Shown here: one piece after another, positions 23,654 through 53,073 of the stretch | How the letters are laid out: each line of letters begins with the position of its first letter | Position numbering within the stretch: position 1 is the stretch's first letter | Notes under the pieces: generated by a model | Databases searched by the model: none | The model's input: the letters and a program-made list of their open reading frames with translations, nothing else | Told to the model about the DNA's origin: nothing | Virus record (IMG/VR): IMGVR_UViG_3300050498_000393 | Source of the DNA: a virus | Direction: 5' to 3' (one strand) | DNA length: 64,000 nucleotides | Position numbers and translations under genes: made by a program

Positions 23654-23941
23654 TGTTACAAGGTACAAGAAGTTTCGTGCATGTTTTCTATAGAGGCTCT
23701 ACCGCATCAACATACGATTATAAAGTGAAGTTGTTTGCACGTGCGAGCGCTCGAGCGCGTTAGAGGTAGCTGGTAGTAGTTTCTTGTTACTTGTAACAGA
23801 TCTAGAAAAATATACTATGAAAATCGACTACAACCCCAGAGAGAAGACTGTTACAAGAAGCCGTTACATCACCGTCTCTCTGTTGTTACAGCGAACAAGT
23901 CTGATGTGAGATCTGTTACATCAACGTCGGCTCAATGTAAC
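23654..23941. repeat. AT-rich region with at least 9 copies of (T)GTTAC(A) (iteron/origin-like)
   Basis: Copies at 23654, 23784, 23792 (inverted), 23849, 23862, 23884, 23914 and 23936 (inverted), plus GGTACAAG at 23662. Includes the palindrome TGTTAC-TT-GTAACA. Confidence 0.6.
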
Positions 23942-26334
23942 GGCTCCCCGTGCGTCCAACCGTGCACCTCAGTGACTAATTTCAGGCCCGTGTAACCTCG
24001 TCGTAGTGCGCCGCCCTCGCGGCGCAGGTACCGGCCCAGGCCATGCGCCACGACGTCCCGACCGAAGTGCCGTCGCTCCAGCCGGTCGGCGGCCCGCACC
24101 CCCGCCAGCGCGCACCACATCACGTACGCGCCGTAGAGCTGGTCCGTGGTCACCGTGTCGCCGTCCGCGCCCGTGATCACGCACCGCTCCGCGAGGAACG
24201 TGCCGACCAGGTCCTCCTCGTCGCGCAGCTCCCGGGTCGCCGCCAGCACGGTGTCGGGCGCGCCCAGCGACCCGATCCGCTGCCAGTCGCGCAGGCCCTC
24301 CAGCGCCCAGTTCAGTATCCCGGCCGCCTCCTCCTCGTACAGCAGCCGCCCGTAGTCCGCGATTCGCCGCTGGCCGTCCACGACCGCCGTGAAATTGACC
24401 CGGTGCAACCGGCGCCAGGTGGCGTCGCTGGAGTCCCGCACCGCCGGGTGGTTGTTCCCCGCGATCCACAGCTTGAGCTGGGCGTCGAACTCGAAGAAGT
24501 CCCGGTTCATCCGGCGCGCCTTGACGCGCCGCGACCCGGTGAGCTGCTTCACGCGCTCGACGTTCAGCGGCCGGCCCTGCCGGGCCTCGTCCACGAACAC
24601 CAGCCGCGCGCCGGCGAGGTCCGCGAGGATCGTTGGGTGCTGCTCGTCGCCCCCCGTGAGCAGGGCCGACGTGCCGGTCTGCGCGTAGTCGCCGAGCAGC
24701 TCCAGCAGCGGCTCGATGAACGCGTTCTTCCCGTTCGCGCCCGGGCCCTCCAGCAGGAAGAACGCCTGCTCGAGGGTGGAGCCCGTCAGGGTGTAGCCCA
24801 CCGCCCGCCGCAGGTACGCGGCCAGCGCCGCGTCGCCGCGGGTCACGAACCGGACGTGCTCCCGCCAGCGTGGGCAGTCCGCGCCCGGGTCGTACGAGAC
24901 GTTCGCCCGGCGCGTGCAGAGGTCCTCCCGCCCGCTGGCCCGCAGCGTCCCGTCGCGCAGGTCCAGGGTGCCGTTCCGGACGACCAGTAGCCACGGGTCC
25001 CGGTCCAGGTCCGCGACGCGCACGGCCACCGGGTCCTCCGCCGCGGCGGCCTCCAACACCGCGCGGCGTCCCCGCACGGACTCCGTCGCGCGCACCCACG
25101 CCACGTGTCGGTTGCGCTGGTCCTCGTCCACCGCGAGGACCTCCGCGCGTAGGTCGTTGATGACGGCCTTCGTCCACTCGGTGACCCGGTTCAGGTCGTC
25201 CGGCGCCCAGCGGGTGCCGTCCCACAGCAGCCAGCGGCGGGTCTCGGTCACGTACCGCGCCCGGTCGCCGAGCAGCCGCACGAACCGCAGGCCGTTGCCC
25301 GTGTCGCTCAGCGGCTCGCCGTGCTCCCAGCCGGTGACCGCCACCCCGCCGATCGGCCGGTGGCCGTTGGCACTCTCGCCCGCGCCCGTGCCGTCGCCAC
25401 CCGGACCCGCGGCGCGCGCCCAGGCCGGCAGCTCGAGGGGGTTCGGCTCCACCTCCCGCCAGACGCGGTCGGCCTTATAGGCGGCGTGCTCCCACGGCAT
25501 CTCGTAGCGGGCCTCCGGGGGCTGCGCGACGCGAGTCCACGCCCGGAACACCGCCTCGTCGTACCGCTCCCGGTCCACGCCCCGTCGCCGCAGCCGGAAG
25601 CATAGATCGTTGATGAAGTAGTCCCGGTGGCCGTCCGGGCAACCGTCCCGCTGGAACGCCGCGAAGTCGTAGTCCTCGCCGGGTCCGCCGCCGGCGCCCC
25701 CGCCGAACCCGCGCCGCCGGCGCGACGTCAGCCAGGCCAGCGCGTCCGCGGGCAGCTCGGCGAGCGCCGGCACCTCGCCCGGCGCGACGCCGAGCCACTC
25801 GCGGCCGTCCTGCCCGCCGACCGCGCCGACGTACCCGGCCTCCGCCTTGACGTCAGCGCCGTCCGCGAAGCGTCCCGACGTCACCGCCGGTGCCCCGGGC
25901 GGTAACCGGTAGTACAGGTGCCGGCCGCCGGACACCGACCGCGCCGTTGCCGTGACCGGCAGCGCCGCGCAGCTCGTCAGCTCCTCCCAGCGGTCGATCA
26001 CGTCCAGGTGGTCGTGCTCGACGTCCAGGACGACCAGGCCCGAGGCGTGCCCGGTCCGGATCGCCAGCTTGCCCGCCGGCCGCGCGCGTAACATCTGGTC
26101 CAGGCGGTCCGGGTCGGTCGTCGCGGCGTGGAAGCCGTGGCACAGTAGGTGGCCGCAGGTCGCCGGGTCGTGGTGGGGCACCGCGGGCGGATCCGGGCGG
26201 CACGACTCACAGTTGCGGAACGGCACCTTCCCGCCGATCGAGTCCGTCGCGAGGAGGAACACCCGCCAGCCGCGCGTCACGTACCGGGCCGCCCAGTCCC
26301 GGAGCTCGCCGGGTTGTGGTAGGGTAGCTGTCAC
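23932..26334 (-). CDS. bifunctional DNA primase-polymerase / SF3 helicase (P4/D5-like)
   Basis: N-terminal prim-pol pattern (YVTRGWRVFLL..GFHAATTD..GLVVLDVEHD). C-terminal Walker A LEGPGANGKN and Walker B LVFVDEA. Confidence 0.8.
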   Translation of the reverse strand: MTATLPQPGELRDWAARYVTRGWRVFLLATDSIGGKVPFRNCESCRPDPPAVPHHDPATCGHLLCHGFHAATTDPDRLDQMLRARPAGKLAIRTGHASGLVVLDVEHDHLDVIDRWEELTSCAALPVTATARSVSGGRHLYYRLPPGAPAVTSGRFADGADVKAEAGYVGAVGGQDGREWLGVAPGEVPALAELPADALAWLTSRRRRGFGGGAGGGPGEDYDFAAFQRDGCPDGHRDYFINDLCFRLRRRGVDRERYDEAVFRAWTRVAQPPEARYEMPWEHAAYKADRVWREVEPNPLELPAWARAAGPGGDGTGAGESANGHRPIGGVAVTGWEHGEPLSDTGNGLRFVRLLGDRARYVTETRRWLLWDGTRWAPDDLNRVTEWTKAVINDLRAEVLAVDEDQRNRHVAWVRATESVRGRRAVLEAAAAEDPVAVRVADLDRDPWLLVVRNGTLDLRDGTLRASGREDLCTRRANVSYDPGADCPRWREHVRFVTRGDAALAAYLRRAVGYTLTGSTLEQAFFLLEGPGANGKNAFIEPLLELLGDYAQTGTSALLTGGDEQHPTILADLAGARLVFVDEARQGRPLNVERVKQLTGSRRVKARRMNRDFFEFDAQLKLWIAGNNHPAVRDSSDATWRRLHRVNFTAVVDGQRRIADYGRLLYEEEAAGILNWALEGLRDWQRIGSLGAPDTVLAATRELRDEEDLVGTFLAERCVITGADGDTVTTDQLYGAYVMWCALAGVRAADRLERRHFGRDVVAHGLGRYLRREGGALRRGYTGLKLVTEVHGWTHGEPLH

Positions 26335-28526: not shown

Positions 28527-29219
28527 ATGCGCACAGAGAAGCGCACGACCGACGGCCGCGAGATCATCGCACGGGAACCGGCATACGCCCCGCACCCGCA
28601 CCCGAGGCACAACGGCAAATTGGTTCAGGTCGCCGGTGTCACCAAGATCTTGTTGGATGACGGCAGCGAGCAACACGAGTGCGATCAGTGTGGCAAGGTG
28701 TTCAAAACCGCAACTTCGGCGGTCGCTCACCTACCCTCGCACGGTGATCACAAGCCACAGTACCCGCTCGACGTTCTCCGACAGGTGATCCGTGAGGTGC
28801 TGCTAGCTAAGCGCGCGGGTGGTAAAGACTTCTGCGCGAGGGCCGCCGAGAAGCTCAACGCGGCGCAGGTACCGACGGCGCAGGGCAAGCCCTGGTCGGG
28901 GGTAGGTGTGTCATATCTCTACAACCGCTATAAGAACGAGGTGCGCGTGCGAGTGTCCGGTGGTCGTGAGGTCAAGCCAGTTTCGGCGCCGCCGAATCAA
29001 CGGACAGCGTCAACAAGTGATGTGAACACAGACATCGCCGATCAAGTCGCCCGCATCAAGCTGGCGTTGGATCAGGTGTGTGGTCAACTGGGTGACCTGG
29101 GTGAGGCCATCGCCCGCGTAGGCCAGGCCATCGCGGCGTTGCCCGCGATCGACTCGCAGGCCATCGAGGACGCGCGCCGGTTCCGCGAGCTGCAAAAGCT
29201 CATGGGCGGTGGCTCGTGA
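28527..29219 (+). CDS. C2H2 zinc-finger protein with coiled-coil C-terminus (230 aa)
   Basis: CDQCGKVFKTATSAVAHLPSH is a C-x2-C-x12-H-x4-H finger. Confidence 0.65.
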   Translation: MRTEKRTTDGREIIAREPAYAPHPHPRHNGKLVQVAGVTKILLDDGSEQHECDQCGKVFKTATSAVAHLPSHGDHKPQYPLDVLRQVIREVLLAKRAGGKDFCARAAEKLNAAQVPTAQGKPWSGVGVSYLYNRYKNEVRVRVSGGREVKPVSAPPNQRTASTSDVNTDIADQVARIKLALDQVCGQLGDLGEAIARVGQAIAALPAIDSQAIEDARRFRELQKLMGGGS

Positions 29220-29389
29220 GCAAGCTGTTCCCGTGTCAACTCGGCGTCTGTCAGACGTACGTGCAGGCCAACTTTCGAGACACCACGTTGGTGTCGGTCC
29301 ACGTGCACCACACCCACCCGACGTGCGCGTTCGGTGTGGACGTGATCGACCTCAAGACGTGGTACCGTCGGATCGCCAAGCGAAAGTGA
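29216..29389 (+). CDS. small Cys/His-rich protein (57 aa)
   Basis: Hand-found GTG ORF (GTGA overlap): VSKLFPCQLGVCQTY..VHVHHTHPTC... Replaces the implausible track ORF 29209..29403. Confidence 0.5.
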   Translation: MSKLFPCQLGVCQTYVQANFRDTTLVSVHVHHTHPTCAFGVDVIDLKTWYRRIAKRK

Positions 29390-29396
29390 GACCCGG

Positions 29397-30383
29397 GTGC
29401 TGATCCTCGTGGAGGGACCGAACCTGGCCGGTAAGACGACGCTGGTGGATCGACTGGTCACCCAGCTCGCCGCCCGAGCCAGCGGCACGGTCACCCGACT
29501 GCACCGCGGCCCGATCGAGAACCGGCACCCGCTGGACGAATACGTGGTCCCCCTCCTGGACTATCACCCCGGGAGCGGGGACCACGTCGTCTGCGACCGC
29601 TGGCACGTCGGTGAGTCCGTGTACCCGTTCGTCTACCCGCGGCCGAGCAAGCTCGATCGTCCGACGTGGCTGTACATCACCGCGTTCCTCCGCGCACGCG
29701 GCGCCCTACTGGTGCATCGTACGGCGTTGCCCTCGGTGTTACGGAGGCGTCTACTCGAGCGTGGTGACGAGAACCTCGCGGTCAACTCGGATAACCTACG
29801 AGTTGAGAAGGACATCTTCGAGGTGATGTGTGCCGGTGGCTCGGCGACCGGTAACGTCGCCACCATGAGAATCGAAGGATCCGCTGACGAGGAGGTTCTG
29901 CGCAACATACGCGCCCGCGCACAGGTTCACGAGATAAGCGCGCGCAAGCTCGCCCCGTTCGTCACCTACGTCGGGCCGCCGAACCCGACCTTCCTGCTGT
30001 TCGGCGACGTGCGCGGTGGACCGAATCACCGACATCGCCACACCAACGACCCGGCGTTCGGTCCGTACCCCAACACCTCCGGGTACTACCTACTGCGTGC
30101 CCTCGACCTGCGAACGCCCAACTTAACCCAGATCGGTATCGCCAACGCGTGTGACGTGGACGATCCGGTCGATCTGTGGGAGACGCTCGGCCGTCCCCGG
30201 GTCGCGGCGCTGGGACGCAACGCGGCGCGTCTACTCCGCAAGCTCGACGCGTTTCCGTTCGGCGCGGCGCCCCATCCCCAGTTCATCAGGCGCTTTCACC
30301 ACGCGCATCACGTCGAGTACGGTCGCGTCGTGATGGAGGCCCTACTGACCGGAGAGAGTACGCCATCGTGGCAGCCCTACTGA
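29397..30383 (+). CDS. fusion of a P-loop (d)NMP-kinase-like domain with a uracil-DNA-glycosylase-superfamily domain
   Basis: N-terminal VEGPNLAGKTTL. The C-terminal FGDVRGGP..AFGPYPNTSGYYLLRAL..IANACDV..VAALGRNAARLL..APHPQFIRR follows family-4 UDG motif order. Confidence 0.7.
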   Translation: MLILVEGPNLAGKTTLVDRLVTQLAARASGTVTRLHRGPIENRHPLDEYVVPLLDYHPGSGDHVVCDRWHVGESVYPFVYPRPSKLDRPTWLYITAFLRARGALLVHRTALPSVLRRRLLERGDENLAVNSDNLRVEKDIFEVMCAGGSATGNVATMRIEGSADEEVLRNIRARAQVHEISARKLAPFVTYVGPPNPTFLLFGDVRGGPNHRHRHTNDPAFGPYPNTSGYYLLRALDLRTPNLTQIGIANACDVDDPVDLWETLGRPRVAALGRNAARLLRKLDAFPFGAAPHPQFIRRFHHAHHVEYGRVVMEALLTGESTPSWQPY

Positions 30384-31216
30384 CCTTCGAGAGTGGCCAG
30401 CACGCCTACCCCCACGTCGTCAACTGGGTGCTCGCGCACGGTCAGCCGCGCGGCGCGCGCGGCCTGCCGACGCTCGACTGCACACACGTGACCGTCGAAC
30501 TACTGTCACCGCTGAACGCGCTGCCGCTCAACTGCGGTCGCCGACTCAACCCGGCCATCGCCGCGTTGGAAGCCGCGCAACTGATCGGCGCGTTTTCGGA
30601 TCCCGAGCTCTGCGTCCGGATCGCACCCAACTTCCGGCGCTACCGCGAGGCAAGCGGCGTCTTCCACGGTGCGTACGGTCGACGCATCGGCGCCCAGCTG
30701 TCCGCCGCGATCACCAAGATCAAGAAGGATTCCGACACCCGGCAGGCGGTCATCTCGCTGTGGGATCCGTGGTTGGACAACCAGCCGGGAAAGCTGGACT
30801 ACCCGTGCACGATCGCACTTCGCCTGTCGCTCAACCCGGACGGCCGGCTCGACGTGGACGTGCTGATGCGCTCCAACGACGTTTGGCTCGGCACCCCGTA
30901 CGACTGGTTCCAGTTCACGCAGCTGCAGCTGACCGCGGCCCACGCGCTGGACGTCGAGCCGGGCACGTACCGACACACGGCGTGGTCCCTACACCTCTAC
31001 CGCGAGAACGAGGAGGCGGCGTGGAACGTGCACGCGTTTACCTCGCGAACGAGCCAGCCGCGCGGTATCGGTATTCGCGGCGAGGACGTCGACTCGATCG
31101 TGAGACGAGCGCGACGCTTTCACCTTAACGGTGAGGTTACCGACCGTGAGGCCGAGATGTGGACCAATTCAGAGAGGTGGTACCGTGAACGACTCAAGCC
31201 GCCCGTCGTGGGATGA
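30368..31216 (+). CDS. thymidylate-synthase-family enzyme, predicted deoxycytidylate hydroxymethylase/methylase
   Basis: RQAVISLWDP, DYPC147, RSNDVWLGTPYD179WFQF and SLHLYREN align with the ThyA motifs. Asp replaces the uracil-specifying Asn. GTG at 30368. Confidence 0.7.
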   Translation: MAALLTFESGQHAYPHVVNWVLAHGQPRGARGLPTLDCTHVTVELLSPLNALPLNCGRRLNPAIAALEAAQLIGAFSDPELCVRIAPNFRRYREASGVFHGAYGRRIGAQLSAAITKIKKDSDTRQAVISLWDPWLDNQPGKLDYPCTIALRLSLNPDGRLDVDVLMRSNDVWLGTPYDWFQFTQLQLTAAHALDVEPGTYRHTAWSLHLYRENEEAAWNVHAFTSRTSQPRGIGIRGEDVDSIVRRARRFHLNGEVTDREAEMWTNSERWYRERLKPPVVG

Positions 31217-31739
31217 GACGTGGATCAACGTCGCCCGCGTCGTTGCCCACCGCTCGCTCTGCGAGCGCGATAAGATCGGTGCGGTGATTGTCGACCCGCG
31301 CATGCGCATCGTCGCGACCGGGTACAACGGCCCGCCGTCCGGCTTCACCCTACCCGACCGGTTGACCGCCAACCGGCCGTGCGCCGAGTGGTGTCCACGG
31401 TCTGCCACGGCCGATTGGATAGCCGGAAAACCGCCGTATGAGAACGGTGAGGACTTTCCTAAGTGGGCCAACGCCGGCTTTCACGGACCGCATCCCGACT
31501 ACTCCGACTGCCCGTCACTCCACGCCGAGGCCAACGCGCTGTCGGTGTGTGAACGTTTCGTGCGCGAGAACGGCACGATCTACGTCACCGGAGACATCTG
31601 CTTCGGATGCGCTAAGTTAATTGCGAACTCTGGCCTGGCACGCGTCGTCATCGACGGCGTCCGACCGGCGATCCACCGCAACCCGGCGCGGTCGCGCGAG
31701 TTTCTGGTGACCTGCGGCCTCGCGGTGGTGGTAGTGTGA
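31185..31739 (+). CDS. dCMP deaminase (CDA fold)
   Basis: RPSWDETWINVARVVAHRSLC..KIGAVIVD, LHAEANAL and ICFGCAKLI zinc motifs. A ~45-aa insert lies between them. GTG at 31185 with an AGAGAGGTGG SD. Confidence 0.75.
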   Translation: MNDSSRPSWDETWINVARVVAHRSLCERDKIGAVIVDPRMRIVATGYNGPPSGFTLPDRLTANRPCAEWCPRSATADWIAGKPPYENGEDFPKWANAGFHGPHPDYSDCPSLHAEANALSVCERFVRENGTIYVTGDICFGCAKLIANSGLARVVIDGVRPAIHRNPARSREFLVTCGLAVVVV

Positions 31740-33508
31740 GCCTCGATGACGTACAACTTCACCGCATCGAGACACCCGACGACGTCGCCGCGTTCCAACG
31801 ATGGCTCGGCGAGCGCCGGCCGGTGCACGCGCTCGGCTATGACACCGAGACGACCGGGCTCGACGTCCACAACGACGACGTGCGTCTGATCCAGTTCGGG
31901 GACGGCGAACACGGTTGGGCGATGGATCGCGAGGACTGGTTGGGTCTGGCACGCTGGGTGTTCAAGGTGTGGGACGGTCGGTACATCATCCACAACGCGC
32001 TGTTTGACGTGCCGATCACCGCGGCGTCGTGCGGCATCGACATACCCCGCGAGCGGGTGGACGACACACTGGTCACCTCCCGGATCAACGAACCGCACTA
32101 CTCGGCGGCGCTCAAGAATCAGGCCGAGCGTCACGTAGATCCGGCGGCGGCCGGTCTGGCGTACGTCCTGGCAGACACCTCGTGGACCTGGGAGACGGTC
32201 CCGACTGACTACCCGCCGTACTGGCAGTACGGCGCGTTAGACCCGGTGCTCGCCTATCACCTGTGGCTCCACCACGGCCCGATCGTCCAGCGGGAGGCCC
32301 CCGCGTCATACGACCTCGAGCTGTCGGTGCTCTGGGTGCTCGAGCGTATGATGCGCAACGGCGTGCACGTCGATCGCGCGCTCGCCGCGCGTAAGCAGAC
32401 CGACTTCGAGAGTTACTGTGAGGACGTCGCCGTGTGGTGCCAGACGAACTATCGGGTCAAGCCCGGCAGCAACGATGCGGTCATCGCGGTGTTGCGCGCG
32501 GCCGGCCACGAGTTCACCAAGCTGACGAAGAGCGGTCGGCGGGAGGCCCTGGACAGCGACGTTCTCGAGGGAATCGCTCACCCGTTGGCACGCGCGGTGC
32601 TGACGCGGCGCCAACTGCAGAAGATCGCCTCAACGTACCTGCGTGCGTTCGTCGAACTCACCGACGAAAACGACATCATTCATCCCGGCATCAACCCGCA
32701 GGGCGCGCTGACGTCACGCATGTCGATGGAGAATCCCAACCTCCAAAACCTGCCGGTGCGCGGTACCAACCCCGGCGGCGAGGTGGTGCGACGATGCGTC
32801 GACTCGCGGTACGGACCGGACGGCCGACTGGTGCTGTGTGACTTCGACCAGGTCGAGATGCGTTTGCTCGCGCATCTCTCGCAGGACGACGGTCTCATTC
32901 AAGCGTTTCACTCGGACGGTGACTTCTTCGTCAACCTGGCGCGCCAGATCTTCGACGACCCGACGATCGTCAAGGGTGACACCCGTCGGCAAGTCACCAA
33001 GAATGCCAGCTACGCCAACGCGTACGGCGCCGGGATCCACAAGTTTGCGCTCACCGCCGGGATCACCGACCAGCAGGCGAGCGACTTCATGACTCGCTAC
33101 CGCAGTATGTACCCAGGTGTGCCACGACTGCAACAGACCGTGCAGCGTGTCGCGAGCCAGCGGCTCGCCGAAGAGGGAGTGCCATACGTTCGCTCGCCGG
33201 TGACCCATCGACGCTGGGCGAGTGACCCTAAGAAGACCTACGCGCTGGTGAACTACCTCATTCAAGGGGTCGCCGCCGAGGTCTTCAAGCAGAAGTTGCT
33301 GCAGCTGGACGCGATGGGCCTCGGCGAGTACATGTGTATTCCGGTGCACGACGAGGTGATCCTCGACGTGCCGCTTGCGGAGGTGCCCGAGGTGGCGAAG
33401 ATGGTTCGTGAGGGCATGACCGACGAGACCTCATTCGCCGTGCCGATCACCGCGGGCGTTGCCACCGGTACCAACTGGCGTGACAAGGAGGAGTGGTTCG
33501 GTGAGTAA
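31736..33508 (+). CDS. family A DNA polymerase with 3'-5' exonuclease domain
   Basis: Exo motif YDTETTGL. Pol motifs DFDQVEMRLLAH, RRQVTKNASYANAYGAG and IPVHDEVILD. Confidence 0.9.
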   Translation: MSLDDVQLHRIETPDDVAAFQRWLGERRPVHALGYDTETTGLDVHNDDVRLIQFGDGEHGWAMDREDWLGLARWVFKVWDGRYIIHNALFDVPITAASCGIDIPRERVDDTLVTSRINEPHYSAALKNQAERHVDPAAAGLAYVLADTSWTWETVPTDYPPYWQYGALDPVLAYHLWLHHGPIVQREAPASYDLELSVLWVLERMMRNGVHVDRALAARKQTDFESYCEDVAVWCQTNYRVKPGSNDAVIAVLRAAGHEFTKLTKSGRREALDSDVLEGIAHPLARAVLTRRQLQKIASTYLRAFVELTDENDIIHPGINPQGALTSRMSMENPNLQNLPVRGTNPGGEVVRRCVDSRYGPDGRLVLCDFDQVEMRLLAHLSQDDGLIQAFHSDGDFFVNLARQIFDDPTIVKGDTRRQVTKNASYANAYGAGIHKFALTAGITDQQASDFMTRYRSMYPGVPRLQQTVQRVASQRLAEEGVPYVRSPVTHRRWASDPKKTYALVNYLIQGVAAEVFKQKLLQLDAMGLGEYMCIPVHDEVILDVPLAEVPEVAKMVREGMTDETSFAVPITAGVATGTNWRDKEEWFGE

Positions 33509-41529: not shown

Positions 41530-42067
41530 CATCGACGGTGTGCTCGTGGACTCGCGTGCCACCGTGCGCGCCGCCTACGAGGGGGCTCTCGGCCAGCGCA
41601 TCGACGACGCCGTCTGGCAGGAGGTCTGGGGCAAGCCGTGGAAGTTGTGGCTACCCGACTTCGTGGGCGAGGTCGGCGAATCGGTCGGCGTGCACCGGCG
41701 TAAGAACGACATCTACCGCGAGCTGATCCGTGGTGGCCACGCGTTGCCCCTGGCCGGTGCGGTCGCCGTGCGTCTACTCCACGGCATGGATCACGGTGTT
41801 CGTCTGATCACCGGCGCGTCCGAGACGGCCGCGCACGCCGTCCTCCACTGGCTCAACATACCGATCCAGCTGTTGGATGTCACCGAGGCAAGTCGTACCG
41901 ACAAGGTAACCCGGCTCGCGTACCTCGAGTCACACGGCGGCGTCATCCACACCGACGATGACGAAAAGCTGATCGCCGAGCTCGAGGAACGCCGCGTGCC
42001 CGCGGTGCACTTCCACGGACAGTCGATCGACGAGTTGATGGATGAGTTGTGGACACGGTCATCCTAG
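41507..42067 (+). CDS. HAD-superfamily phosphatase/phosphomutase
   Basis: Motif I, YFYFDIDGVLVDS. Confidence 0.65.
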   Translation: MRRYFYFDIDGVLVDSRATVRAAYEGALGQRIDDAVWQEVWGKPWKLWLPDFVGEVGESVGVHRRKNDIYRELIRGGHALPLAGAVAVRLLHGMDHGVRLITGASETAAHAVLHWLNIPIQLLDVTEASRTDKVTRLAYLESHGGVIHTDDDEKLIAELEERRVPAVHFHGQSIDELMDELWTRSS

Positions 42068-42756
42068 CCGCGGGACGCAATCAACGACTGCAACACATCA
42101 TTCCCCCATATCACAAGCCGTTCATCGTGTTGAACGGTCGATCGGTGCTCGAGCGGGCGGTCGACGTCGCCACACAGACCCACCCGGGTGATCGCTGCAT
42201 CGTCGTGTGCGCCCCCCAGAACGCCGTGCAGGCGGCACACGTGGTCAACAGTCGAGCACTACTCGCGGTGCAAGCAATGCCACGTGGTCCCGGTGATGCA
42301 CTGTGGTGTGGGTTGCAACTCGTGGTTACCGAGCACGTGCTGGTACTCATGGGTGACAACGTAACGGATGTCGGGGATGTGCGGCTGTTTCAACCCACCT
42401 CTGACGCGACCGAACGCATCGGGATCCAGCGCACGCGAGATCTCGAGCGCGCCGCGTCATTCACCGTGTGGAACCACAAGTCACGACGTTGGGAGGAGAA
42501 GGTACCGATTGGACCCGAGCACACCGAACCCGCCGTCGACATCTACGGTGATGACACACGGCTGGTGACGTGTTGGTTTGGGCCCCTCATGTTACGCACC
42601 GCTAGAGCCCTGGACGTTCTCACTACGACACGTGTTGTCGACGATGGTACGGTTCGACCTGAGCTGCTCATCGGACCCATCTTAAGTGAATTGGCACCCA
42701 ACGGCATTCACGTTCCGGTGCACACATCCGACGTTGACACGGAGGTATTGCGGTGA
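42049..42756 (+). CDS. sugar-phosphate nucleotidyltransferase
   Basis: VILAAGRNQRL (LAAGxGxRL signature). Confidence 0.65.
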   Translation: MDTVILAAGRNQRLQHIIPPYHKPFIVLNGRSVLERAVDVATQTHPGDRCIVVCAPQNAVQAAHVVNSRALLAVQAMPRGPGDALWCGLQLVVTEHVLVLMGDNVTDVGDVRLFQPTSDATERIGIQRTRDLERAASFTVWNHKSRRWEEKVPIGPEHTEPAVDIYGDDTRLVTCWFGPLMLRTARALDVLTTTRVVDDGTVRPELLIGPILSELAPNGIHVPVHTSDVDTEVLR

Positions 42757-43667
42757 CAAAAACCGCCCTGGTGACCGGCTCGAACGGTTTCCTCGGTCGA
42801 CACTTCGTGCGCGAACTCGAATCACGCAACTGGAATGTCGTGACGATGGATGGTGAAGATCTCTCCAACGACGTCCGTGCGCTGTGGTACGAGACGGAGG
42901 ACGACACGTACGACCTCGTAGTGCACTGCGCGGCCGTTGGTCCAAACCGCGTGGCAATGTCGACGCCGAGCATGAATCTCGCTACCAACGTGCAACTGGA
43001 CGCGACGCTGTTCAACTGGGCTGTACAAACCAACCAGCGGCACGTGATCTACATCTCCTCAGCGGCGATCTACCCGGTGGAACTGCAGAGTATCGTTCTG
43101 AACATGCCCGGCTTCGAGACGATGTTGATCGAAAGTGATGTGCACCTTGACGATCCCGAGGTGCGCGTACCGGACGGCGACTACGGCTGGACAAAGTGGC
43201 TCGGCGAACGTATGGCACACCGGGCGCGCGCGCTCGGACTACAGGTTACGATCGTGCGACCGTTCTCGGGGTACGGCGAGGACCAGGACCCCGAACACTT
43301 CCCGTTTCCCGCCATCATGCGACGAGTGTGCAACGGCAATCTCACCGTGTGGGGCCCGGCCGGTCAGCGTCGTGACTGGATCCACGTCGACGACGTCGTA
43401 CGCGGCGCACTCGCGATCGCGGAGACCTCGGTCAACGAGACGGTGAATCTGTGTACGGGCGTCGGAACCACGTTCGGCGACCTGGCCGTCGCGATGGCCC
43501 GGGAGCTCGAGTTGCCGATCGCGCATCATCACATTATCTACGATGAGAACAAACCGACCGGTGTGTATCACCGCGTCGGTAACCCGGCACACATGCACGA
43601 GTTCTACGAGCCAAAGATCACACTCGAGGAGGGGATCCGACGTGCAGTCCGAGCCGCCGGTGCCTGA
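42753..43667 (+). CDS. NAD-dependent epimerase/dehydratase (SDR)
   Basis: ALVTGSNGFLGRH Rossmann motif. YGWTKWLGE is the YxxxK motif. Confidence 0.75.
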   Translation: MTKTALVTGSNGFLGRHFVRELESRNWNVVTMDGEDLSNDVRALWYETEDDTYDLVVHCAAVGPNRVAMSTPSMNLATNVQLDATLFNWAVQTNQRHVIYISSAAIYPVELQSIVLNMPGFETMLIESDVHLDDPEVRVPDGDYGWTKWLGERMAHRARALGLQVTIVRPFSGYGEDQDPEHFPFPAIMRRVCNGNLTVWGPAGQRRDWIHVDDVVRGALAIAETSVNETVNLCTGVGTTFGDLAVAMARELELPIAHHHIIYDENKPTGVYHRVGNPAHMHEFYEPKITLEEGIRRAVRAAGA

Positions 43668-44172
43668 TCGTTTGGCTACGATGATCGCGCTCCAGCGTTC
43701 GTTGCAGGAGACGCACATGCTTCGCGGCAACACGTTCGCTGATATGACCACACTGGAGCGGGTGCACTACGTCAGGGACATGTACGTCGCCGCTACCCAG
43801 GAGCTCGGTGAGGTGCTCGACGAGACGACGTGGAAGTCGTGGTCCGTCGCGCAACCCGCGATCCACGATGATCACCTCTTCGGCGAGGTGATCGACGTGT
43901 GGCACATCGTTATGAACCTGTTCCTCGTCGCGCGACCGAACGCGACGTCGGATGAGATCGCCGCCGAGATCTACCGTGCGTACCAACGGAAGCGACAGAT
44001 CAACGTCGAGCGGCAGGTCAACGGCTACGCCGGCGACGGTAAGTGTCCACTCTGCACGCGGGCGCTGGACGACGTGGGGTTCGTACCCGACCTCGAGGCG
44101 GATCCGGCCGGTCAAGACATGATGATGTGCCTCGGCTGTCGCGGTACGTTTCCACGGGACGACGTGAGGTGA
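43642..44172 (+). CDS. all-alpha NTP pyrophosphohydrolase (dimeric dUTPase/dCTPase/MazG-like) with C-terminal zinc ribbon
   Basis: ATQELGEVLDETTWKSW...GEVIDVWHIVMNLF acidic helix pattern. CPLC...CLGC. GTG at 43642 with a GAGGAGGGG SD. Confidence 0.55.
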   Translation: MQSEPPVPDRLATMIALQRSLQETHMLRGNTFADMTTLERVHYVRDMYVAATQELGEVLDETTWKSWSVAQPAIHDDHLFGEVIDVWHIVMNLFLVARPNATSDEIAAEIYRAYQRKRQINVERQVNGYAGDGKCPLCTRALDDVGFVPDLEADPAGQDMMMCLGCRGTFPRDDVR

Positions 44173-45371
44173 CCTACCGAGCGCTGGACGTCATGGGCTT
44201 CGCCGGCGGATTCACCCTCGGCGTCGTACAGGCCGGCTTCGAACTGGTCGGTAAGCGGGAGCTTCAGGGCGGATTCGGCGTGGCGAACTGTGAGGTCAAC
44301 CGACACCTACTCGGCTCGCGCTGGCAGACCGAGATCGGCCACGAGAGCTCGTGGACGCCGGTGGACACCGAGTTGGTCTTCGGCAACCCACCCTGCTCCG
44401 GCTTCTCGGTGATGTCGGCGAAGACGTTTCGCGGCGCGGACTCGAAGATCAACCACTGCATGTGGGCATTCGTCGAGTACGCGGCGCGCGTGCGACCCCA
44501 AGTCGCCGCGTTCGAGTCCGTCCAGCAGGCGTACACGAGCGCCGACGGCCGTGTGCTCATGACGTCGCTGCGCAATCGACTAGATGAGTTGACGGGTTGG
44601 CACTGGAACCTGCATCACGTGTTACACAACGCGTACTCGGTGGGTGGCGCCGCGCAACGACGTCGCTACTTCTGGGTGGCGTCGCGCGTGCCGTTCGGCG
44701 TCGAGGAACCCAACCCGCGCACGCGCCTTCCCCTGCTGCGCGACGTGATCGGCGACCTCGCCCAGCTCGGCCAGACGTGGCTACCGCAACCCTACCGAGC
44801 CAGCGCCGATTCCTGGGCCGAGCCGCGTCGCCGTACGGACGGTGCGGTGGACGGTCACGTGTCCCTGGACATCCCCCTGACCCGCCGGATACGGCAACTA
44901 CTGGACGCCGTCGACTGGAAGCCGGGGGAGGCGCTCGGCGACGTGTTATCTCGCTACTGGGACGAGTACGGCCGACTGCCCAACGGCTTTGACGAGGAAA
45001 AGATCGTTAAGAACGAGTTCCACGTGGGTTACACGACTCCGACGCGCTGGAACGGTAACAACCCGGCGCGTGTAATCACCGGTGGCGCGCTGCAGATGGT
45101 CGTGCACCCGTGGCTCGACCGGACGATCACCCACCGCGAGGCCGCGCGGGTGATGGGTTTTCCCGACGACTGGCTGATCGAACCGCTACGCGGCAAGTCA
45201 GGCCTACACCTCACGTGGGGTAAGGGAATCACGGTCGACTGTGGGCGCTGGCTCGGTGGTTGGATCAAGCGTGCCCTAGACGGTCAGCGGGGTAGCGTCG
45301 CCGGTAAGCTGGTCGGTAACCGTGAGTGGACCATCGACGTCACCAACTCGTATCGCAAGTTCATGTGGTAG
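44169..45371 (+). CDS. DNA cytosine-C5 methyltransferase-like enzyme
   Basis: Motif I DVMGFAGGF, motif IV GNPPCSGFS (Ser where Gln is usual), motif VI AAFESVQ, and REAARVMGFPDDW. GTGA overlap start. Confidence 0.75.
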   Translation: MTYRALDVMGFAGGFTLGVVQAGFELVGKRELQGGFGVANCEVNRHLLGSRWQTEIGHESSWTPVDTELVFGNPPCSGFSVMSAKTFRGADSKINHCMWAFVEYAARVRPQVAAFESVQQAYTSADGRVLMTSLRNRLDELTGWHWNLHHVLHNAYSVGGAAQRRRYFWVASRVPFGVEEPNPRTRLPLLRDVIGDLAQLGQTWLPQPYRASADSWAEPRRRTDGAVDGHVSLDIPLTRRIRQLLDAVDWKPGEALGDVLSRYWDEYGRLPNGFDEEKIVKNEFHVGYTTPTRWNGNNPARVITGGALQMVVHPWLDRTITHREAARVMGFPDDWLIEPLRGKSGLHLTWGKGITVDCGRWLGGWIKRALDGQRGSVAGKLVGNREWTIDVTNSYRKFMW

Positions 45372-49141: not shown

Positions 49142-50149
49142 ATGGTCGATCGCGTGCTACTCACGGGGGCGTCAGGTTTCGTCGGCGCGCACGTTCTACG
49201 TCACCTGCTGATCAACACGAACTCACATGTGCTCTGTCCGGTGACCTTTCGTCACCGTGGCAACGCCGACCGGATCGCCTCGTCGCTGCAAGATCACCCC
49301 GAGTGGCAGGAGCGCGTCACGGTCGAGATGTGCGACCTAGCGGGCCCGCTGGCCGAGTCGCAGTTGAAGCGGTGGGGTGATGTAGACACGATCCTCAACG
49401 TGGCCAGCGAGTCGCACGTGGACCGCAGCATCGCGGATCCGGCAGGATTCATCGCGAACAACGTTGCGATCATCACCACGCTACTCGAGTACGCCCGCTG
49501 GGCACGTCCACGGTTCTTCGTGCAGACCAGCACCGACGAGGTGTACGGTCCGGCGCCGCTTGGCTACGCACATCGCGAGTGGGACGCGATCGTTCCCAGC
49601 AACCCGTACGCCGCGTCGAAGGCCGCGCAGGAGGCGGTGTGCGTTGCCTACTGGCGCACCTACGGCGTACCCATCTTGCTAACCAACACCATGAACATGT
49701 TCGGTGAGATGCAGGACCCCGAGAAGTTCGTCGCCAAGGCGATCCGTCTACTGTGTCGCGGCGAGTCCGTGCCGGTGCACGTGTCCCCGGAGGGTGTGTC
49801 GGGTTCCCGGTTCTACCTACACGCGCGCAACCTCGCCGATGCCTGGCTCCACCTAACGACGCGCGACGTGGTACGTCACGCGGACGGCGCCGATCGACCG
49901 GACCGTTATCACGTCGTCGGCGAACGCGAGATCACCAACATAGATATGGTTCGACTCATCGCCGAGTTCCTAGGTGTTGAACCCAACTGGCACGCCGTGG
50001 ACTTTCACAGCTCACGCCCGGGGCACGATTTACGGTACGCGCTAGACGGCACAAAGTTGGCAGACACCGGGTGGCGGCACCCGTATTCACTCGAGAAGTC
50101 ACTCGCGAAAACGATCGAGTGGACGCTGACTCATCCCGAGTGGCTGTAG
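49142..50149 (+). CDS. NDP-sugar 4,6-dehydratase/epimerase (SDR, RmlB-like)
   Basis: VLLTGASGFVGAHV, YAASKAAQE (YxxxK), 335 aa. Converges on the glycosyltransferase block. Confidence 0.75.
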   Translation: MVDRVLLTGASGFVGAHVLRHLLINTNSHVLCPVTFRHRGNADRIASSLQDHPEWQERVTVEMCDLAGPLAESQLKRWGDVDTILNVASESHVDRSIADPAGFIANNVAIITTLLEYARWARPRFFVQTSTDEVYGPAPLGYAHREWDAIVPSNPYAASKAAQEAVCVAYWRTYGVPILLTNTMNMFGEMQDPEKFVAKAIRLLCRGESVPVHVSPEGVSGSRFYLHARNLADAWLHLTTRDVVRHADGADRPDRYHVVGEREITNIDMVRLIAEFLGVEPNWHAVDFHSSRPGHDLRYALDGTKLADTGWRHPYSLEKSLAKTIEWTLTHPEWL

Positions 50150-51192
50150 GCCTTTTCCCAGGCCTCCCACCAGTGATGTGCGTTCTTCGATATCGTTAGG
50201 TATTCACGCACACGTTCACGCGACTCGGCGCCGATGTCCGCGCGCATATCCGGGTTATCGAGCAGAAGCTTGATCTCCCGGTACCACTGCTTAGGCTTGT
50301 CGGCGAGTCGACCGATGCCGTACTTGTTGTGTAGACGTAAGTAGTCGGCGCGTGGCGACACGACGCACGGCGCACCCACCGCCGCGTATTCCAGTGGTTT
50401 AAGCCACGACTTCGCCGCGTTGAAGAGCGTGTCAGCCAGCGGGGCGATACCCACCCCGACGTGTTGTGCGACGCTCGCCGGCCAGTCAGCCTGCTCCACC
50501 GGTCCCGTGCCGTCAGCCCACGTTTCGGGTAGCTTCAACGCACGCCCCACCCCGTGCGGCGAACCGATCACGCGGAACTCGTACCCCTCGTTAACGAGAC
50601 GCGAGATCGATGATCCGATAACGTCCAGGTCGCGCGGGTGTGAGTGGAACGAACCGGCCCAGGCGATCCGTGACGAGTCCTCGTGTGGCAGATCGAGGTA
50701 GAGGTCGGGCACGTAGTTCTTGATCACTGATACCCGGCCGTGCGGTGCGTACCGCCGGGCGAGTGCGTCGGTGGTGCACGTCACCCAGTCTGCCGTTTCG
50801 CACGCGCGTTGGCAGTGTTGCCAGCTGTGATCCGAGTCACCGTGCGTCGGGTGTAGGTGTGTCCACGCCGGGTTCGCCGGGTCGATTCGTGCGAGGTCAT
50901 CGTCGATGTCCACGACGACGCGCACCCCGTGGCGACGTTGCATCACCGGAATGGCGTCGGCGAGCGTCCGACTCGTAACACGCTGTAACACGATGACATC
51001 GGCGTTGACCGGTAACTTCACGTCGAGTATCTCGCCGGTGTGCTTATTGACGCTCGCCGCCATGTTTCGCTTCTGCTCCTCGGGCGACACAGTGTACACG
51101 TCACAGCCCTGACGTCGAAGCTCCGCGGCCGGCCAGATCGCACGAAAGTGTCCGCAGCCAGTCTGATCGGCGGGGAATACGTAGACCTTCAC
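50131..51192 (-). CDS. glycosyltransferase (GT-B-like, 353 aa)
   Basis: Last gene of the tail-proximal sugar cluster. The N-terminal MKVYVFPADQTGCGHFR pattern and C-terminal ..LKPLEYAAVGAPCVVSP.. are typical of GT1/GT4-type donors. GTGA overlap start. Confidence 0.6.
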   Translation of the reverse strand: MKVYVFPADQTGCGHFRAIWPAAELRRQGCDVYTVSPEEQKRNMAASVNKHTGEILDVKLPVNADVIVLQRVTSRTLADAIPVMQRRHGVRVVVDIDDDLARIDPANPAWTHLHPTHGDSDHSWQHCQRACETADWVTCTTDALARRYAPHGRVSVIKNYVPDLYLDLPHEDSSRIAWAGSFHSHPRDLDVIGSSISRLVNEGYEFRVIGSPHGVGRALKLPETWADGTGPVEQADWPASVAQHVGVGIAPLADTLFNAAKSWLKPLEYAAVGAPCVVSPRADYLRLHNKYGIGRLADKPKQWYREIKLLLDNPDMRADIGAESRERVREYLTISKNAHHWWEAWEKAYSHSG

Positions 51193-51311
51193 ATGAGTCT
51201 CCCGAGGAGCGCCAGTGCGATGAACAACCCGAGGATGCCACCGGCCCAGAGTGTGATCGCGCCGACGAGTAACGCAATGTCCCAGAGCGTGCGACGCAGA
51301 CTTATACCCAT
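51189..51311 (-). CDS. tiny membrane protein (40 aa)
   Basis: MGISLRRTLWDIALLVGAITLWAGGILGLFIALALLGRLM. Confidence 0.45.
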   Translation of the reverse strand: MGISLRRTLWDIALLVGAITLWAGGILGLFIALALLGRLM

Positions 51312-51321
51312 ACGTTCGATT

Positions 51322-51915
51322 TTACCACCGGTGTGGTAATCCCGAGGTGTTCTGGCTGTCGTGGTGCCAGAGCCACGTGAACGGGTACGCGGGATCGACA
51401 AAGTGTGAGATCTTCGCGCCCAGCTTCTCGCACTCCTCCTGGAACAACCAGTCCTCACCCGAGTTCGCCGGGTTTCGGTTGGCATCGCTGAAGCCGACGG
51501 CCTGGGCGAGCTCCGTCTTAACGAGGATAGTGATCGTCGAGGCGATCGGCGCGGCCGGATCATAGGGCACGGCCCAGCGTCCCGGCGGAAACGGGTCCAT
51601 CCCGCCAACGACCTGGAACCACGAGAAGACGTAATCGGCGTCGGCGTCGAGCGCGTGCTGAAGCAGCAGCGACAAGTGCTCGGGTAGAAACTCGTCGTCG
51701 TCGTCGAGGAAGGCGGTCCAAGGTGAGCGTACGGCCTCCAGCGCTCTCTGTCGCGTGACGGCGGCCCCGGTACGATGGTTGTCTACGGCTACCGAGATCG
51801 CGTCCGCTGGAAGCGTCTGGTCGAGGACGCTGGCGATGGCCCGCCGCAGTAGTTGTCGACGCGGTGGGATGGACGGAATGCAAACGGTGATTCCGCAGTC
51901 AGCTCGCAGTCCCAC
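51322..51915 (-). CDS. GT-A (family 2-like) glycosyltransferase
   Basis: ITVCIPSIPPRR..LDQTLPADAISVAVDN..AFLDDDDEF (DxD). Confidence 0.7.
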   Translation of the reverse strand: MGLRADCGITVCIPSIPPRRQLLRRAIASVLDQTLPADAISVAVDNHRTGAAVTRQRALEAVRSPWTAFLDDDDEFLPEHLSLLLQHALDADADYVFSWFQVVGGMDPFPPGRWAVPYDPAAPIASTITILVKTELAQAVGFSDANRNPANSGEDWLFQEECEKLGAKISHFVDPAYPFTWLWHHDSQNTSGLPHRW

Positions 51916-52537
51916 CGCGTCCTCCTAGGTTGGCACCGTGGAAGTGATACCGCCACGTCACCTCGGGCACGTGCACGAACTCGGCACCGGCGTCGAGTAG
52001 ACGCAGCAGTAGACCGTAGTCCTCACAGTCACCGGAGGCGACCGCCGGGAACGAGTTCGGCTGTGGAAAGCCGCCGACCTTCCGGATCAGCTCCGTCTCA
52101 CCGAGCCACGTTACCGGGATGAAGTTACCGAGCTCCCGCAGGTGCCGACGTTGCTCGACGCCGAACGGTACACCGAACGGCGACACGAGGTGCCCGTTCA
52201 CCGACGTGGCTAACGGATCACGACCTCCGACGAACTGAGCATACGAGTAGGCGAGCTGCGCCCGCGCGCGACGGATGCCCTTGACGAGCGACTGGATGTG
52301 CGTCGGCAGCAGCTCATCATCATCGTCGAGCCACGCCACCCAGCGCGTCTTCACCTGGGCGAGTGCTTTGTTACGCGTGGTGGCGGCACCCTCCCGTAGG
52401 TGATCATCGATGATGATGATCTCGGTGGGTGCGAGTGTCTGGTTGAGCACCGAGTCGAGCGCGCGACCGAGCAGCTCGCGTCGCTCGTAGATCGTGGGTA
52501 TGACGACGGTTACGTCGGGTGACGAGATCACAGGCAC
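51899..52537 (-). CDS. GT-A (family 2-like) glycosyltransferase
   Basis: VTVVIPTIYERR..LNQTLAPTEIIIIDD..AWLDDDDEL (DxD). Confidence 0.7.
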   Translation of the reverse strand: MPVISSPDVTVVIPTIYERRELLGRALDSVLNQTLAPTEIIIIDDHLREGAATTRNKALAQVKTRWVAWLDDDDELLPTHIQSLVKGIRRARAQLAYSYAQFVGGRDPLATSVNGHLVSPFGVPFGVEQRRHLRELGNFIPVTWLGETELIRKVGGFPQPNSFPAVASGDCEDYGLLLRLLDAGAEFVHVPEVTWRYHFHGANLGGRGGTAS

Positions 52538-53073
52538 CCCCAGATGCCGAACCGATACACGAGTTGGGTGTCGTAGAGCAACAGCCGATCGACCTTCCAG
52601 CCGGCATTGTGTAACATCTTCTCGATCTCGTCGACGTCCCAGCCCCAGTAATGCTCGGGGTTGTCGGCGGTAGTCTCACCGTCGGGTGTGGAGAGAATAA
52701 GCATCCGTGCCCGTTGCCGGATCTGCTCGAGTAGCCAGTCGGGTCGCTCGACGTGTTCGAGTGTCTCGGTACAGATGAACAGGTCCACCGCGGGTTCGAG
52801 GTCGAGGACAGCCTCCTCGATCGGACGACCGAGCAGCAGATCGTTCGTGTAACACAGTCGCTCGGGTGCGCCGAGTGCACGGACAATCGCGGCGTCACCG
52901 CATGATAGGTCGGCGATCGACGTCACTCGGTACGAGTCGGCGTACCAGCGGGCGAGTCGCGTCGTCAGCGCGATGCGCGTCCGGTGATCCTCCCACCGTG
53001 TGTGATCATAGGGGCGCGAGTAGACTCGCGCGAGTTCCTCGGCCGAGTAGAACGGCCTCAACTGCCTTCTCAA
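52528..53073 (-). CDS. class I SAM-dependent methyltransferase
   Basis: IADLSCGDAAI and DLFICTETLEHV motifs. TTG start at 53073 with an AAGGAGG SD (TTGA overlap). The track start at 53157 is rejected. Confidence 0.6.
   Translation of the reverse strand: MRRQLRPFYSAEELARVYSRPYDHTRWEDHRTRIALTTRLARWYADSYRVTSIADLSCGDAAIVRALGAPERLCYTNDLLLGRPIEEAVLDLEPAVDLFICTETLEHVERPDWLLEQIRQRARMLILSTPDGETTADNPEHYWGWDVDEIEKMLHNAGWKVDRLLLYDTQLVYRFGIWGCL

Follow-up and report, generated by a model that had tools for sequence, protein, structure and literature searches.

What might a phage gain from a single protein that joins a nucleotide kinase to a DNA base-flipping fold? The question is raised by the open reading frame (ORF) 29397-30383 in a 64,000-nucleotide (nt) stretch of IMG/VR virus record IMGVR_UViG_3300050498_000393 (hereafter, the window, to which all positions refer). 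A sequence-only reading had assigned its product a P-loop kinase at the N terminus and a domain of the uracil-DNA glycosylase (UDG) superfamily at the C terminus. It offered two functions: a deoxynucleoside monophosphate (dNMP) kinase comparable to T4 gp1 fused to an unrelated module, or a kinase acting at the DNA level on a base flipped out by the UDG fold. Our results confirm that ORF 29397-30383 encodes a real two-domain protein, with the domains and motifs at the predicted positions; Foldseek searches and a homologue from Bacillus phage G that bridges to known UDGs agree on this layout. As to function, the first proposal is better supported than the second. The explanation we favor, with about even confidence, is that the protein combines a kinase for 5-modified deoxycytidine monophosphate (dCMP) with a glycosylase or base-flipping module that is probably active, so that synthesis of a modified base is coupled to the policing of uracil-type bases.

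A word-indexed search returned 387 homologues, nearly all of them 305 to 360 amino acids (aa) long, with query coverage of 94 to 100% and identity of 39 to 60%. An exhaustive search with a profile of the C-terminal domain alone matched 1529 clusters at 50% identity when the threshold was set at E ≤ 1e-3, and 265 of these reached E ≤ 1e-30. Among the best 150 of the 1529 clusters, the domain is almost always located at residues ~170 to 320 of proteins of ~320 aa. Relatives are encoded at 301 IMG/VR loci, and the identical 328-aa protein is present on 11 contigs from separate metagenome assemblies. The same 328-aa product was also called by independent gene callers on other assemblies. AlphaFold modeled the full-length protein with a predicted local distance difference test score (pLDDT) of 92.9 and a predicted template modeling score (pTM) of 0.92. 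The possibility that the fusion is a frameshift or assembly artefact was rejected on the number of homologues, the position of the domain in the clusters, the 301 loci, and the 11 identical contigs. Homologues of 156 to 280 aa from a representative search mostly start inside the kinase domain and resemble truncated gene calls.

Among 50,697 GenBank phage records, the full-length architecture was found only in Actinomycetia phage DSL-LC01 and Bacillus phage G. The DSL-LC01 homologue is 33% identical to the window protein and is labeled “thymidylate kinase” in the database; in the paper on this phage, the gene goes unmentioned. Megablast of the 5-kb region against the same records gave no match and no near-identical relative, and the window phage is known from metagenomes only. 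No paper describing the kinase-UDG architecture was found in the literature searched, in agreement with the earlier remark that the combination is uncharacterized. We regard the architecture as new and widespread and its UDG-fold domain as a new, reduced UDG subfamily.

The N-terminal domain was assigned by structure, profiles, and motifs. In a Foldseek search of the Protein Data Bank (PDB) with the full-length model, the best match was YorR of the SPbeta prophage (3kb2), with a target-normalized TM score of 0.76, followed by thymidylate kinases and PPK2. Only kinase-domain matches were returned by this search, and the C-terminal domain was modeled and searched alone. A family profile matched YorR over its whole length (E = 1.6e-15), and YorR (2axp/3kb2) is the closest relative of the domain in both sequence and structure. 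Pfam Thymidylate_kin (PF02223) was matched by 45 of 56 family members and the NCBIfam dTMP kinase model (TIGR00041) by 55 of 56.

Residue conservation was counted over 232 full-length family members. The thymidylate-kinase motifs EGPNLAGKTT, D67-R68...Y76, and R122 are present and conserved, and they follow one another as in thymidylate kinases. Lys13 of the P-loop is found in 230 members, the other two having a gap at this position; D67 and Y76 are each present in 231 and R68 and E73 in all 232, and R122 of the RGDE motif is present in 217. We take an EG.D..GK[ST]T P-loop followed by DR[WYH] and a Tyr nine residues later to be the layout of thymidylate kinases, and we presume that DRWH...GESVY corresponds, spacing included, to their DR[YH]...Y acceptor-site motif. 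Since this layout is conserved, the domain is a complete mononucleotide-kinase module, that is, a P-loop dNMP kinase of the YorR/thymidylate-kinase type. It is acidic, with a median isoelectric point (pI) of 6.3.

One further motif in this part of the protein, GP..HPLDEY..PLLDYRPG (residues 38 to 59, positions 29508-29573), shows hardly any variation within the fusion family and is missing from YorR, from gp315 of Bacillus phage G, and from gp180 of Gordonia phage Forza; YorR and Forza gp180 also differ from the window protein in being single-domain kinases without the UDG fold. The motif could form an acceptor-base site or an interface with the UDG domain.

The C-terminal domain, modeled alone with AlphaFold (pLDDT 88.5), was compared to the PDB using Foldseek. 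Every one of the 34 best matches was a UDG-superfamily enzyme, with family 4 and UdgX at the head of the list; these enzymes are UdgX, the family-4 UDGs of Thermus thermophilus and Thermotoga maritima, and Bradyrhizobium BdiUNG. The best E value was 1.6e-4, with probability of 1.00 for the top matches and TM scores of ~0.54; the next matches after the UDGs were cutinases with E > 0.3. Among viral structures in BFVD, the matches of the domain were phage UDGs, PolA-UDG fusions, and Gp315 of Bacillus phage G. Weak matches to the Pfam UDG model were seen in 5 of 33 family members, the best with E = 0.038. The only nominally significant match in an hmmsearch of PDB sequences, to a de novo TIM barrel, was judged spurious, being due to a short repeated NA.DVD string.

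The phage G protein provides an indirect link to the Pfam model. gp315 (331 aa; JN638751, record positions 230927-231922), labeled “gp315” or “thymidylate kinase,” can be aligned with the window family along the kinase and UDG domains alike (hhalign probability 98.7%, E = 3.4e-16, 282 columns, ~21% identity). Its C terminus passes Pfam UDG PF03167 (48.2 bits versus a cut-off of 24.3), which connects the fusion family to that model, and its N terminus passes Thymidylate_kin. It has the same kinase plus UDG architecture, but its UDG domain is more canonical, with AQNPG as motif A and the segment between the Asn and LG motifs retained; in the window family, motif A reads GDVRG and the domain is shorter. 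In the segment surrounding the Asn, which is affected by a deletion in the window family, the hhalign alignment with gp315 is unreliable and was not used for residue mapping. Overall, modeling, viral structure matches, and the gp315 bridge agree that the C-terminal domain has a UDG fold.

The sequence-only reading had described the domain as following the family-4 motif order. A weak hhalign alignment with family-4 UDGs supports this register: it pairs GDVRG with GEGPG, PAFGPYPNTSG with GRPFVGKAG, Asn250 with the Asn of ITNIVKC, and ALGRNA (residues 271 to 276 of the fusion protein) with PLGAVAA. The alignment ends before motif B, and HPQ..RR was therefore placed opposite HPS..LR by direct comparison with the sequences of T. 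thermophilus UDG (TthUDG) and UdgX. A family-4 consensus typed by hand served only as bait to pull real PDB sequences. Arg299 is located at His+6, the same offset as R184 of UdgX (HPSSLLR) and the Arg of TthUDG (HPAYLLR).

Membership in family 4 does not follow from this order. Cys252 is the sole cysteine in residues 176 to 328 and the N-terminal CxxC is absent; because the four cysteines of the family-4 cluster are missing, no iron-sulfur (Fe-S) cluster is expected. Neither the four-cysteine 4Fe-4S cluster nor the GE(A/G)PG and HPS/HPA..LR motifs of family 4 are found, and the domain is ~20 residues shorter than family 4 between the Asn and the LG motif. What is found are the features of the superfamily, namely, the alpha/beta fold detected by Foldseek and the pocket residues of motif A, the aromatic residue, the Asn, and the His. 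Compared with family-4 UDGs and UdgX (1ui0 of T. thermophilus, 1l9g of T. maritima, and M. smegmatis UdgX), the domain shares motif order and register and the HP-x-x-x-x-R arrangement with Arg at His+6, and these enzymes are its best structural matches; it differs in lacking the Fe-S cysteines and ~20 residues, in its GDVRG and HPQ motifs, and in being fused to a kinase. The KRRIH loop of UdgX is not present, and similarity to family-4 UDGs at the sequence level is not significant. This is therefore a reduced, derived UDG-fold domain and not a family-4 member in the strict sense. In a subgroup of the family (P0007, P0010, and P0068), a Cys-rich insertion follows motif A (e.g., GCDGIECDH and NCSGYDCRH); it may be a small metal site, and the window protein has none.

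The residues that line the pocket are conserved throughout the family. G203 is present in 231 of the 232 members, an acidic residue at position 204 (D/E) in 229, and R206 in 229; F221 is present in 230, S228 in 229, and G229 in 231; and N250, H293, P294, Q295, and R299 are each present in all 232. The pocket thus appears intact: it retains the acidic residue of motif A, the aromatic residues, Asn250, His293, and Arg299, the last located where UdgX has its DNA-intercalating Arg. Judging from this pattern, the pocket is under strong selection. By analogy with characterized enzymes, the invariant Asn250 indicates that it reads a uracil-type base and not one of the 5-hydroxymethylcytosine (hmC) type. 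In the host antiviral glycosylase Brig1, a family-4-like UDG fold that excises glucosyl-hmC, a Glu replaces the Asn to read the cytosine face. Brig1 and the window domain are alike in that a family-4-like UDG fold is repurposed around hmC-type phage DNA; they differ in that Brig1 reads glucosyl-hmC with Glu for Asn and has an enlarged pocket, whereas the window family is phage-encoded and keeps the Asn. The domain is basic, with a median pI of 8.8, like real UDGs.

A UDG-like pocket embedded in a nucleotide-metabolism protein might bind free nucleotides, either as an allosteric or substrate-selecting site for the kinase or as an N-glycosidase destroying, for example, dUMP. UdgX has been crystallized with dUMP in its pocket (6ajp), invariant R206, along with the T-S-G loop, offers a possible site for a 5′ phosphate, and the gene is surrounded by nucleotide-metabolism genes. 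However, Arg299 at the DNA-intercalating position and the basic character of the domain point to DNA, and the UDG-superfamily members encountered in the analysis either have DNA as their substrate or are joined to DNA polymerases. To our knowledge, no UDG-superfamily member acts on free nucleotides. We consider a free-nucleotide function very unlikely.

The cytosine side of the proposed function comes from the neighboring genes. A thymidylate synthase (TS) homologue lies directly downstream of the kinase-UDG gene in the window. Its start overlaps the kinase-UDG stop by 16 nt, and GGAGAG is located 10 nt upstream of its GTG; the two genes are probably translationally coupled. Both belong to a block of + strand genes, and GC content is ~64% throughout the region around the kinase-UDG gene. 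Synteny was counted in the best 80 of the 301 IMG/VR loci. The TS homologue is downstream on the same strand in all 80 and adjacent in 78, and both a dCMP deaminase and PolA are found within 6 kb in 76. The neighbors, like the fusion itself, are thus conserved in the databases.

The TS homologue is related most closely to those of DSL-LC01 and an unannotated fecal-metagenome contig, and then to the TS homologues of M6-like, SPO1, ViI-like, and T4-like phages. These groups of phages make 5-hydroxymethyl-dUMP or 5-hydroxymethyl-dCMP. We take the position that sets uracil or cytosine specificity in this family to be Asn177 in E. coli ThyA and Asp179 in T4 gp42; the ThyA sequence served as a position reference only, and no conclusion rests on it alone. 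The residue is Asp in the window enzyme, in DSL-LC01, in two metagenomic relatives, and in T4-like gp42, and Asn in M6 gp58, SPO1, Cba120, and ThyA. At the 80 loci, Asp occupies this position in 79, and the catalytic Cys is likewise conserved in 79. Because of the Asp, the TS homologue is predicted to act on dCMP, and these sequence features indicate that it is not an ordinary ThyA.

The order of deaminase, TS, and TMP kinase genes could nevertheless be read as an ordinary dTTP module, in which a true TS and a plain dTMP kinase are accompanied by a UDG that removes dUMP misincorporated as the deaminase raises the dUMP level. The three activities make up the canonical dCMP→dUMP→dTMP→dTDP route, database entries are labeled “thymidylate kinase” and “thymidylate synthase,” no family models match better than those for dTMP kinase, and Asn250 suits uracil. 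Against this stand the Asp, not Asn, at the TS specificity position in 79 of the 80 loci; the position of the TS homologue nearest to hydroxymethylases, with the CMP hydroxymethylase MilA as its best PDB match; and a Pfam TS match that covers only profile positions 110 to 217 of 266. We regard the ordinary module as improbable.

In the scheme we prefer, the TS homologue, with Asp where uracil-specific enzymes have Asn, would convert dCMP to 5-modified dCMP, most likely 5-hydroxymethyl-dCMP, as sequence and synteny suggest. The YorR/thymidylate-kinase-type domain would phosphorylate the modified dNMP to the diphosphate, as gp1 does after gp42 in T4, and host nucleoside diphosphate kinase and phage PolA would then place the modified base in DNA. 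The C-terminal domain, for which the fold is supported by modeling, would flip out and excise uracil-type bases from phage DNA. Such bases may be U, 5-hydroxymethyluracil (5-hmU) or T produced by deamination of the modified cytosine, or products of misincorporation fed by the phage dCMP deaminase. Through the fusion, such quality control and the synthesis of precursors would both be kept at the site of replication. A cytosine-type pathway combined with a uracil-type pocket fits such a quality-control role.

The T4 gp42/gp1 pair follows the same logic of an Asp-type TS homologue followed by a phage dNMP kinase, with a dCMP deaminase and a nucleoside triphosphate (NTP) pyrophosphohydrolase also encoded. 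In contrast, gp1 has no UDG domain and the window kinase is YorR- and thymidylate kinase–like; the likeness to gp1 is proposed as a functional analogy only. The earlier proposal of a gp1-like kinase with an unrelated module therefore holds for the kinase part, which is of the YorR/thymidylate-kinase type and linked to an Asp-type TS, but the module can hardly be called unrelated, since both the fusion and its linkage to a cytosine-type enzyme are kept from actinophages to Bacillus phage G.

The surroundings of gp315 in phage G are of the same kind. Near it are gp317, a dCMP deaminase, and gp319, an Asp-type TS homologue (GTPYD), as well as gp306 and gp313, homologues of T4 DNA alpha-glucosyltransferase; gp309, a glucose-1-phosphate thymidylyltransferase; and a C5 methyltransferase. 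The window phage and phage G share, beside the fusion, dCMP deaminase, Asp-type TS, sugar-nucleotide, glycosyltransferase, and C5 methyltransferase genes. This gene content suggests that phage G DNA contains glucosyl-hmC, for which no published measurement was found. In Gordonia phage Forza (MK814760), the kinase domain has an unfused homologue, gp180 (262 aa; hhalign probability 99.2%), in which ~110 residues at the C terminus show no alignment with the UDG domain. It adjoins gp179, labeled “thymidylate synthase,” which has Asp at the specificity position, and Forza-type Gordonia phages may also modify cytosine. A search of the literature on hmC in actinophages found nothing relevant.

The second function offered in the sequence-only reading, a DNA-level nucleobase kinase, would have the UDG fold flip a 5-hydroxymethyl-pyrimidine from the duplex and the P-loop domain phosphorylate its hydroxymethyl group, priming hypermodification. 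Given the invariant Asn, the flipped base would more likely be 5-hmU than 5-hmC. Known DNA kinases for 5-hydroxymethyldeoxyuridine (5-hmdU), the 5-HMUDKs (M6 gp54, ViI gp67, and SP10 gp186; PF18748), are, like the window protein, P-loop kinases whose genes lie close to those of TS-like hydroxymethylases in phages that have modified pyrimidines. They are distantly related to the thymidylate kinase/deoxynucleoside kinase class, and M6 gp54 weakly matches Thymidylate_kin. The invariant Arg in place of Pro in motif A, the modeling of both domains as one confident unit (pTM of 0.92), and the glycosyltransferase and sugar-nucleotide genes of the window, which show that some glycan chemistry is encoded, would also be in keeping with such an enzyme.

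Several observations argue otherwise. The window kinase domain does not match PF18748 at E ≤ 1, whereas M6 gp54 matches it at 7.7e-18; of the 44 Pfam families found, PF18748 is not among the 25 matched by the most members; and hhalign to 5-HMUDK aligns just 23 P-loop columns. Membership in the 5-HMUDK family was rejected; the linked TS, moreover, is Asp-type and not Asn-type. The N-terminal domain is a complete YorR-like kinase with dNMP acceptor motifs, and its unfused orthologue, Forza gp180, retains the same Asp-type TS partner. The known 5-hmdU DNA kinases act after replication with aGPT-Pplase/AADT (amino-acid:DNA transferase) partners, and none of the ~25 window ORFs scanned gave a Pfam match to such a transferase. 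In addition, the pathway is of the cytosine type while the pocket, with Asn250, is of the uracil type, and known 5-HMUDKs need no UDG domain. The DNA-level proposal is thus not supported, and we rate it the least probable of the explanations considered, a long shot.

Returning to the combination of a modified-dCMP kinase with a probably active glycosylase, a number of results weigh against it. By itself, the window protein scores below the curated cut-offs of Thymidylate_kin and the dTMP-kinase model, and 5-modified dCMP is proposed as the kinase substrate only through gene linkage. Methylation of dCMP, instead of hydroxymethylation, may be the reaction of the TS homologue. A C5 cytosine methyltransferase is encoded in the window (44043-45371, + strand, after the dUTPase/MazG-like gene), in phage G (gp301), and in DSL-LC01; in the window and in phage G, it is unexpected and hard to reconcile with full replacement of cytosine. 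As for the C-terminal domain, the window protein does not match Pfam UDG PF03167, remaining below the curated cut-off; an hmmsearch of PDB sequences with the C-terminal profile recovered no UDG; and the hhalign alignment with four family-4 UDGs (E = 0.085) is statistically weak alone and was not used as proof. In motif A, an invariant Arg (R206) stands where all classical families have Pro, and in motif B, Gln295 stands where family 4 has Ser or Ala. Because of these two substitutions and the missing Fe-S cluster and ~20 residues, the glycosylase chemistry may be altered or lost. The window ORFs scanned included neither an AP (apurinic/apyrimidinic) endonuclease nor any other partner for base excision.

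The same deviations would suit a UDG-fold domain that does not cleave and serves as a reader of DNA or bases or as a replisome tether, with the kinase as proposed above. Its part would be to place the synthesis of precursors at the fork or to serve in processivity or recruitment, as is thought for poxvirus D4 and the UDG domains of N4-like polymerases. The noncanonical motif A, HPQ in place of HPS, the loss of the Fe-S cluster and a helix-loop segment, the lack of base-excision partner genes among the ORFs scanned, and the basic character of the domain are all compatible with this role, which has a precedent in phage polymerases that carry a non-catalytic UDG domain. However, a tether has no need for D/E204, N250, and H293-P-Q, which are kept in 229 to 232 of the 232 members. 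UDG domains of N4-like polymerases have been reported to be without their catalytic residues, and since the window family has kept its pocket residues, unlike those inactive domains, a purely structural role is argued against. We therefore consider the non-cleaving alternative unlikely, although more probable than the other alternatives.

A precedent for an active module is found in phages with modified thymidine, where family-A polymerases carry fused UDG domains that are active and excise dU ahead of the fork. These PolA-UDG fusions (SPO1-like, SP15-like/YerA41, and phiLo; inactive in N4-like phages), whose proposed role is removal of dU during replication, resemble the window protein in that phages with modified pyrimidines have joined a UDG fold to a protein of replication or of precursor synthesis. 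They differ in the fusion partner, which here is a dNMP kinase, the PolA of the window phage having no UDG domain, and in the modified base: PolA-UDG phages modify thymidine, whereas the window group appears to modify cytosine.

The label “thymidylate kinase” thus hides a conserved UDG-fold domain in at least 1529 clusters at 50% identity and on 301 viral contigs, and one member is carried by Bacillus phage G, for which an isolate is available. Replacement of cytosine is best known from T-even coliphages. The strict linkage of the fusion to a cytosine-type TS homologue predicts that 5-modified cytosine takes the place of cytosine in a broad group of metagenomic phages, kin of a predicted actinobacteriophage, and in phage G, and the kinase-UDG protein would be an easy genomic marker of the modification. 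If the C-terminal domain is an active glycosylase for the uracil-type deamination products of a modified-cytosine genome, the protein would represent phage-encoded self-repair tied to precursor synthesis, complementing the recently described fusions of UDG and polymerase in phages that modify thymidine. For the detection of modified bases, too, a UDG this small, lacking the Fe-S cluster and having a novel motif A (G-D-x-R), could be of use. Were the DNA-level explanation true instead, the family would add a second class of nucleobase DNA kinases, of independent evolutionary origin, and the UDG pocket would have its first non-hydrolytic use.

Table 1. Positions in the window of the kinase-UDG gene, its domains and motifs, and genes linked to the proposed pathway.
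Feature	Residues	Position	Strand	Basis or remarks
Whole gene, kinase-UDG fusion	328 aa	29397..30383	+	GTG start; stop included
N-terminal P-loop dNMP kinase domain, YorR/thymidylate-kinase type	1 to ~165	29397..29891	+	Foldseek, profiles
P-loop GPNLAGKTT	7-15	29415..29441	+	Sequence, conservation
DRWH...GESVY (DRWH 67-70, GESVY 72-76)	67-76	29595..29624	+	Conservation
RGDE, LID-region arginine motif	122-125	29760..29771	+	Common to YorR (RGDE)
Long interdomain helix	~165-185	29889..29951	+	DSSP on model
C-terminal UDG-fold domain, reduced, without Fe-S cluster	~186-328	29952..30380	+	Foldseek, BFVD, gp315 bridge
GDVRG, motif A equivalent	203-207	30003..30017	+	Aligned to GEGPG of T. thermophilus UDG
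PAFGPYPNTSG	219-229	30051..30083	+	Equivalent to family-4 GRPFVG.AG (aromatic stacking residue, phosphate-contact loop)
ANACDVDD, including Asn250	249-256	30141..30164	+	Asn aligned to N of ITNIVKC
HPQFIRRF, motif B equivalent	293-300	30273..30296	+	Comparison with UdgX and TthUDG sequences
TS homologue, predicted dCMP-acting, hydroxymethylase-like, Asp in GTPYD		30368..31216	+	Profile, structure, synteny
dCMP deaminase		31185..31739	+	Start per independent gene callers
Family-A DNA polymerase, without its own UDG domain		31736..33508	+	DNA polymerase I (DNA_pol_A) in syntenic orthologues; homologue in 76/80 loci
Dimeric dUTPase/MazG-like NTP pyrophosphohydrolase		43543..44172	+	Family match

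The product of the dUTPase/MazG-like gene is a candidate dCTPase/dUTPase of the same pathway. A sugar-nucleotide and glycosyltransferase cluster is located at 42049-43667 (+), 49142-50149 (+), and 50131-53738 (−) and contains genes for a MobA-like nucleotidyltransferase, two NAD-dependent epimerases/dehydratases, and four glycosyltransferases (one GT1-like, two of phrog_14775, and one of phrog_14945). The products could glycosylate a hydroxymethyl base in DNA, or virion or cell-wall components.

Upstream of the kinase-UDG gene, a 230-aa protein with a weak C2H2 zinc-finger signal is encoded. Most of the apparent 178-bp gap directly upstream of the kinase gene is filled by a 57-aa ORF (29216-29389, +), which was called on other assemblies too. 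An 800-aa ORF (23932-26334, −) lies in the most GC-rich part of the window, where GC content is 0.75 (positions 24001-26000); the third-position GC of this ORF is 0.94.

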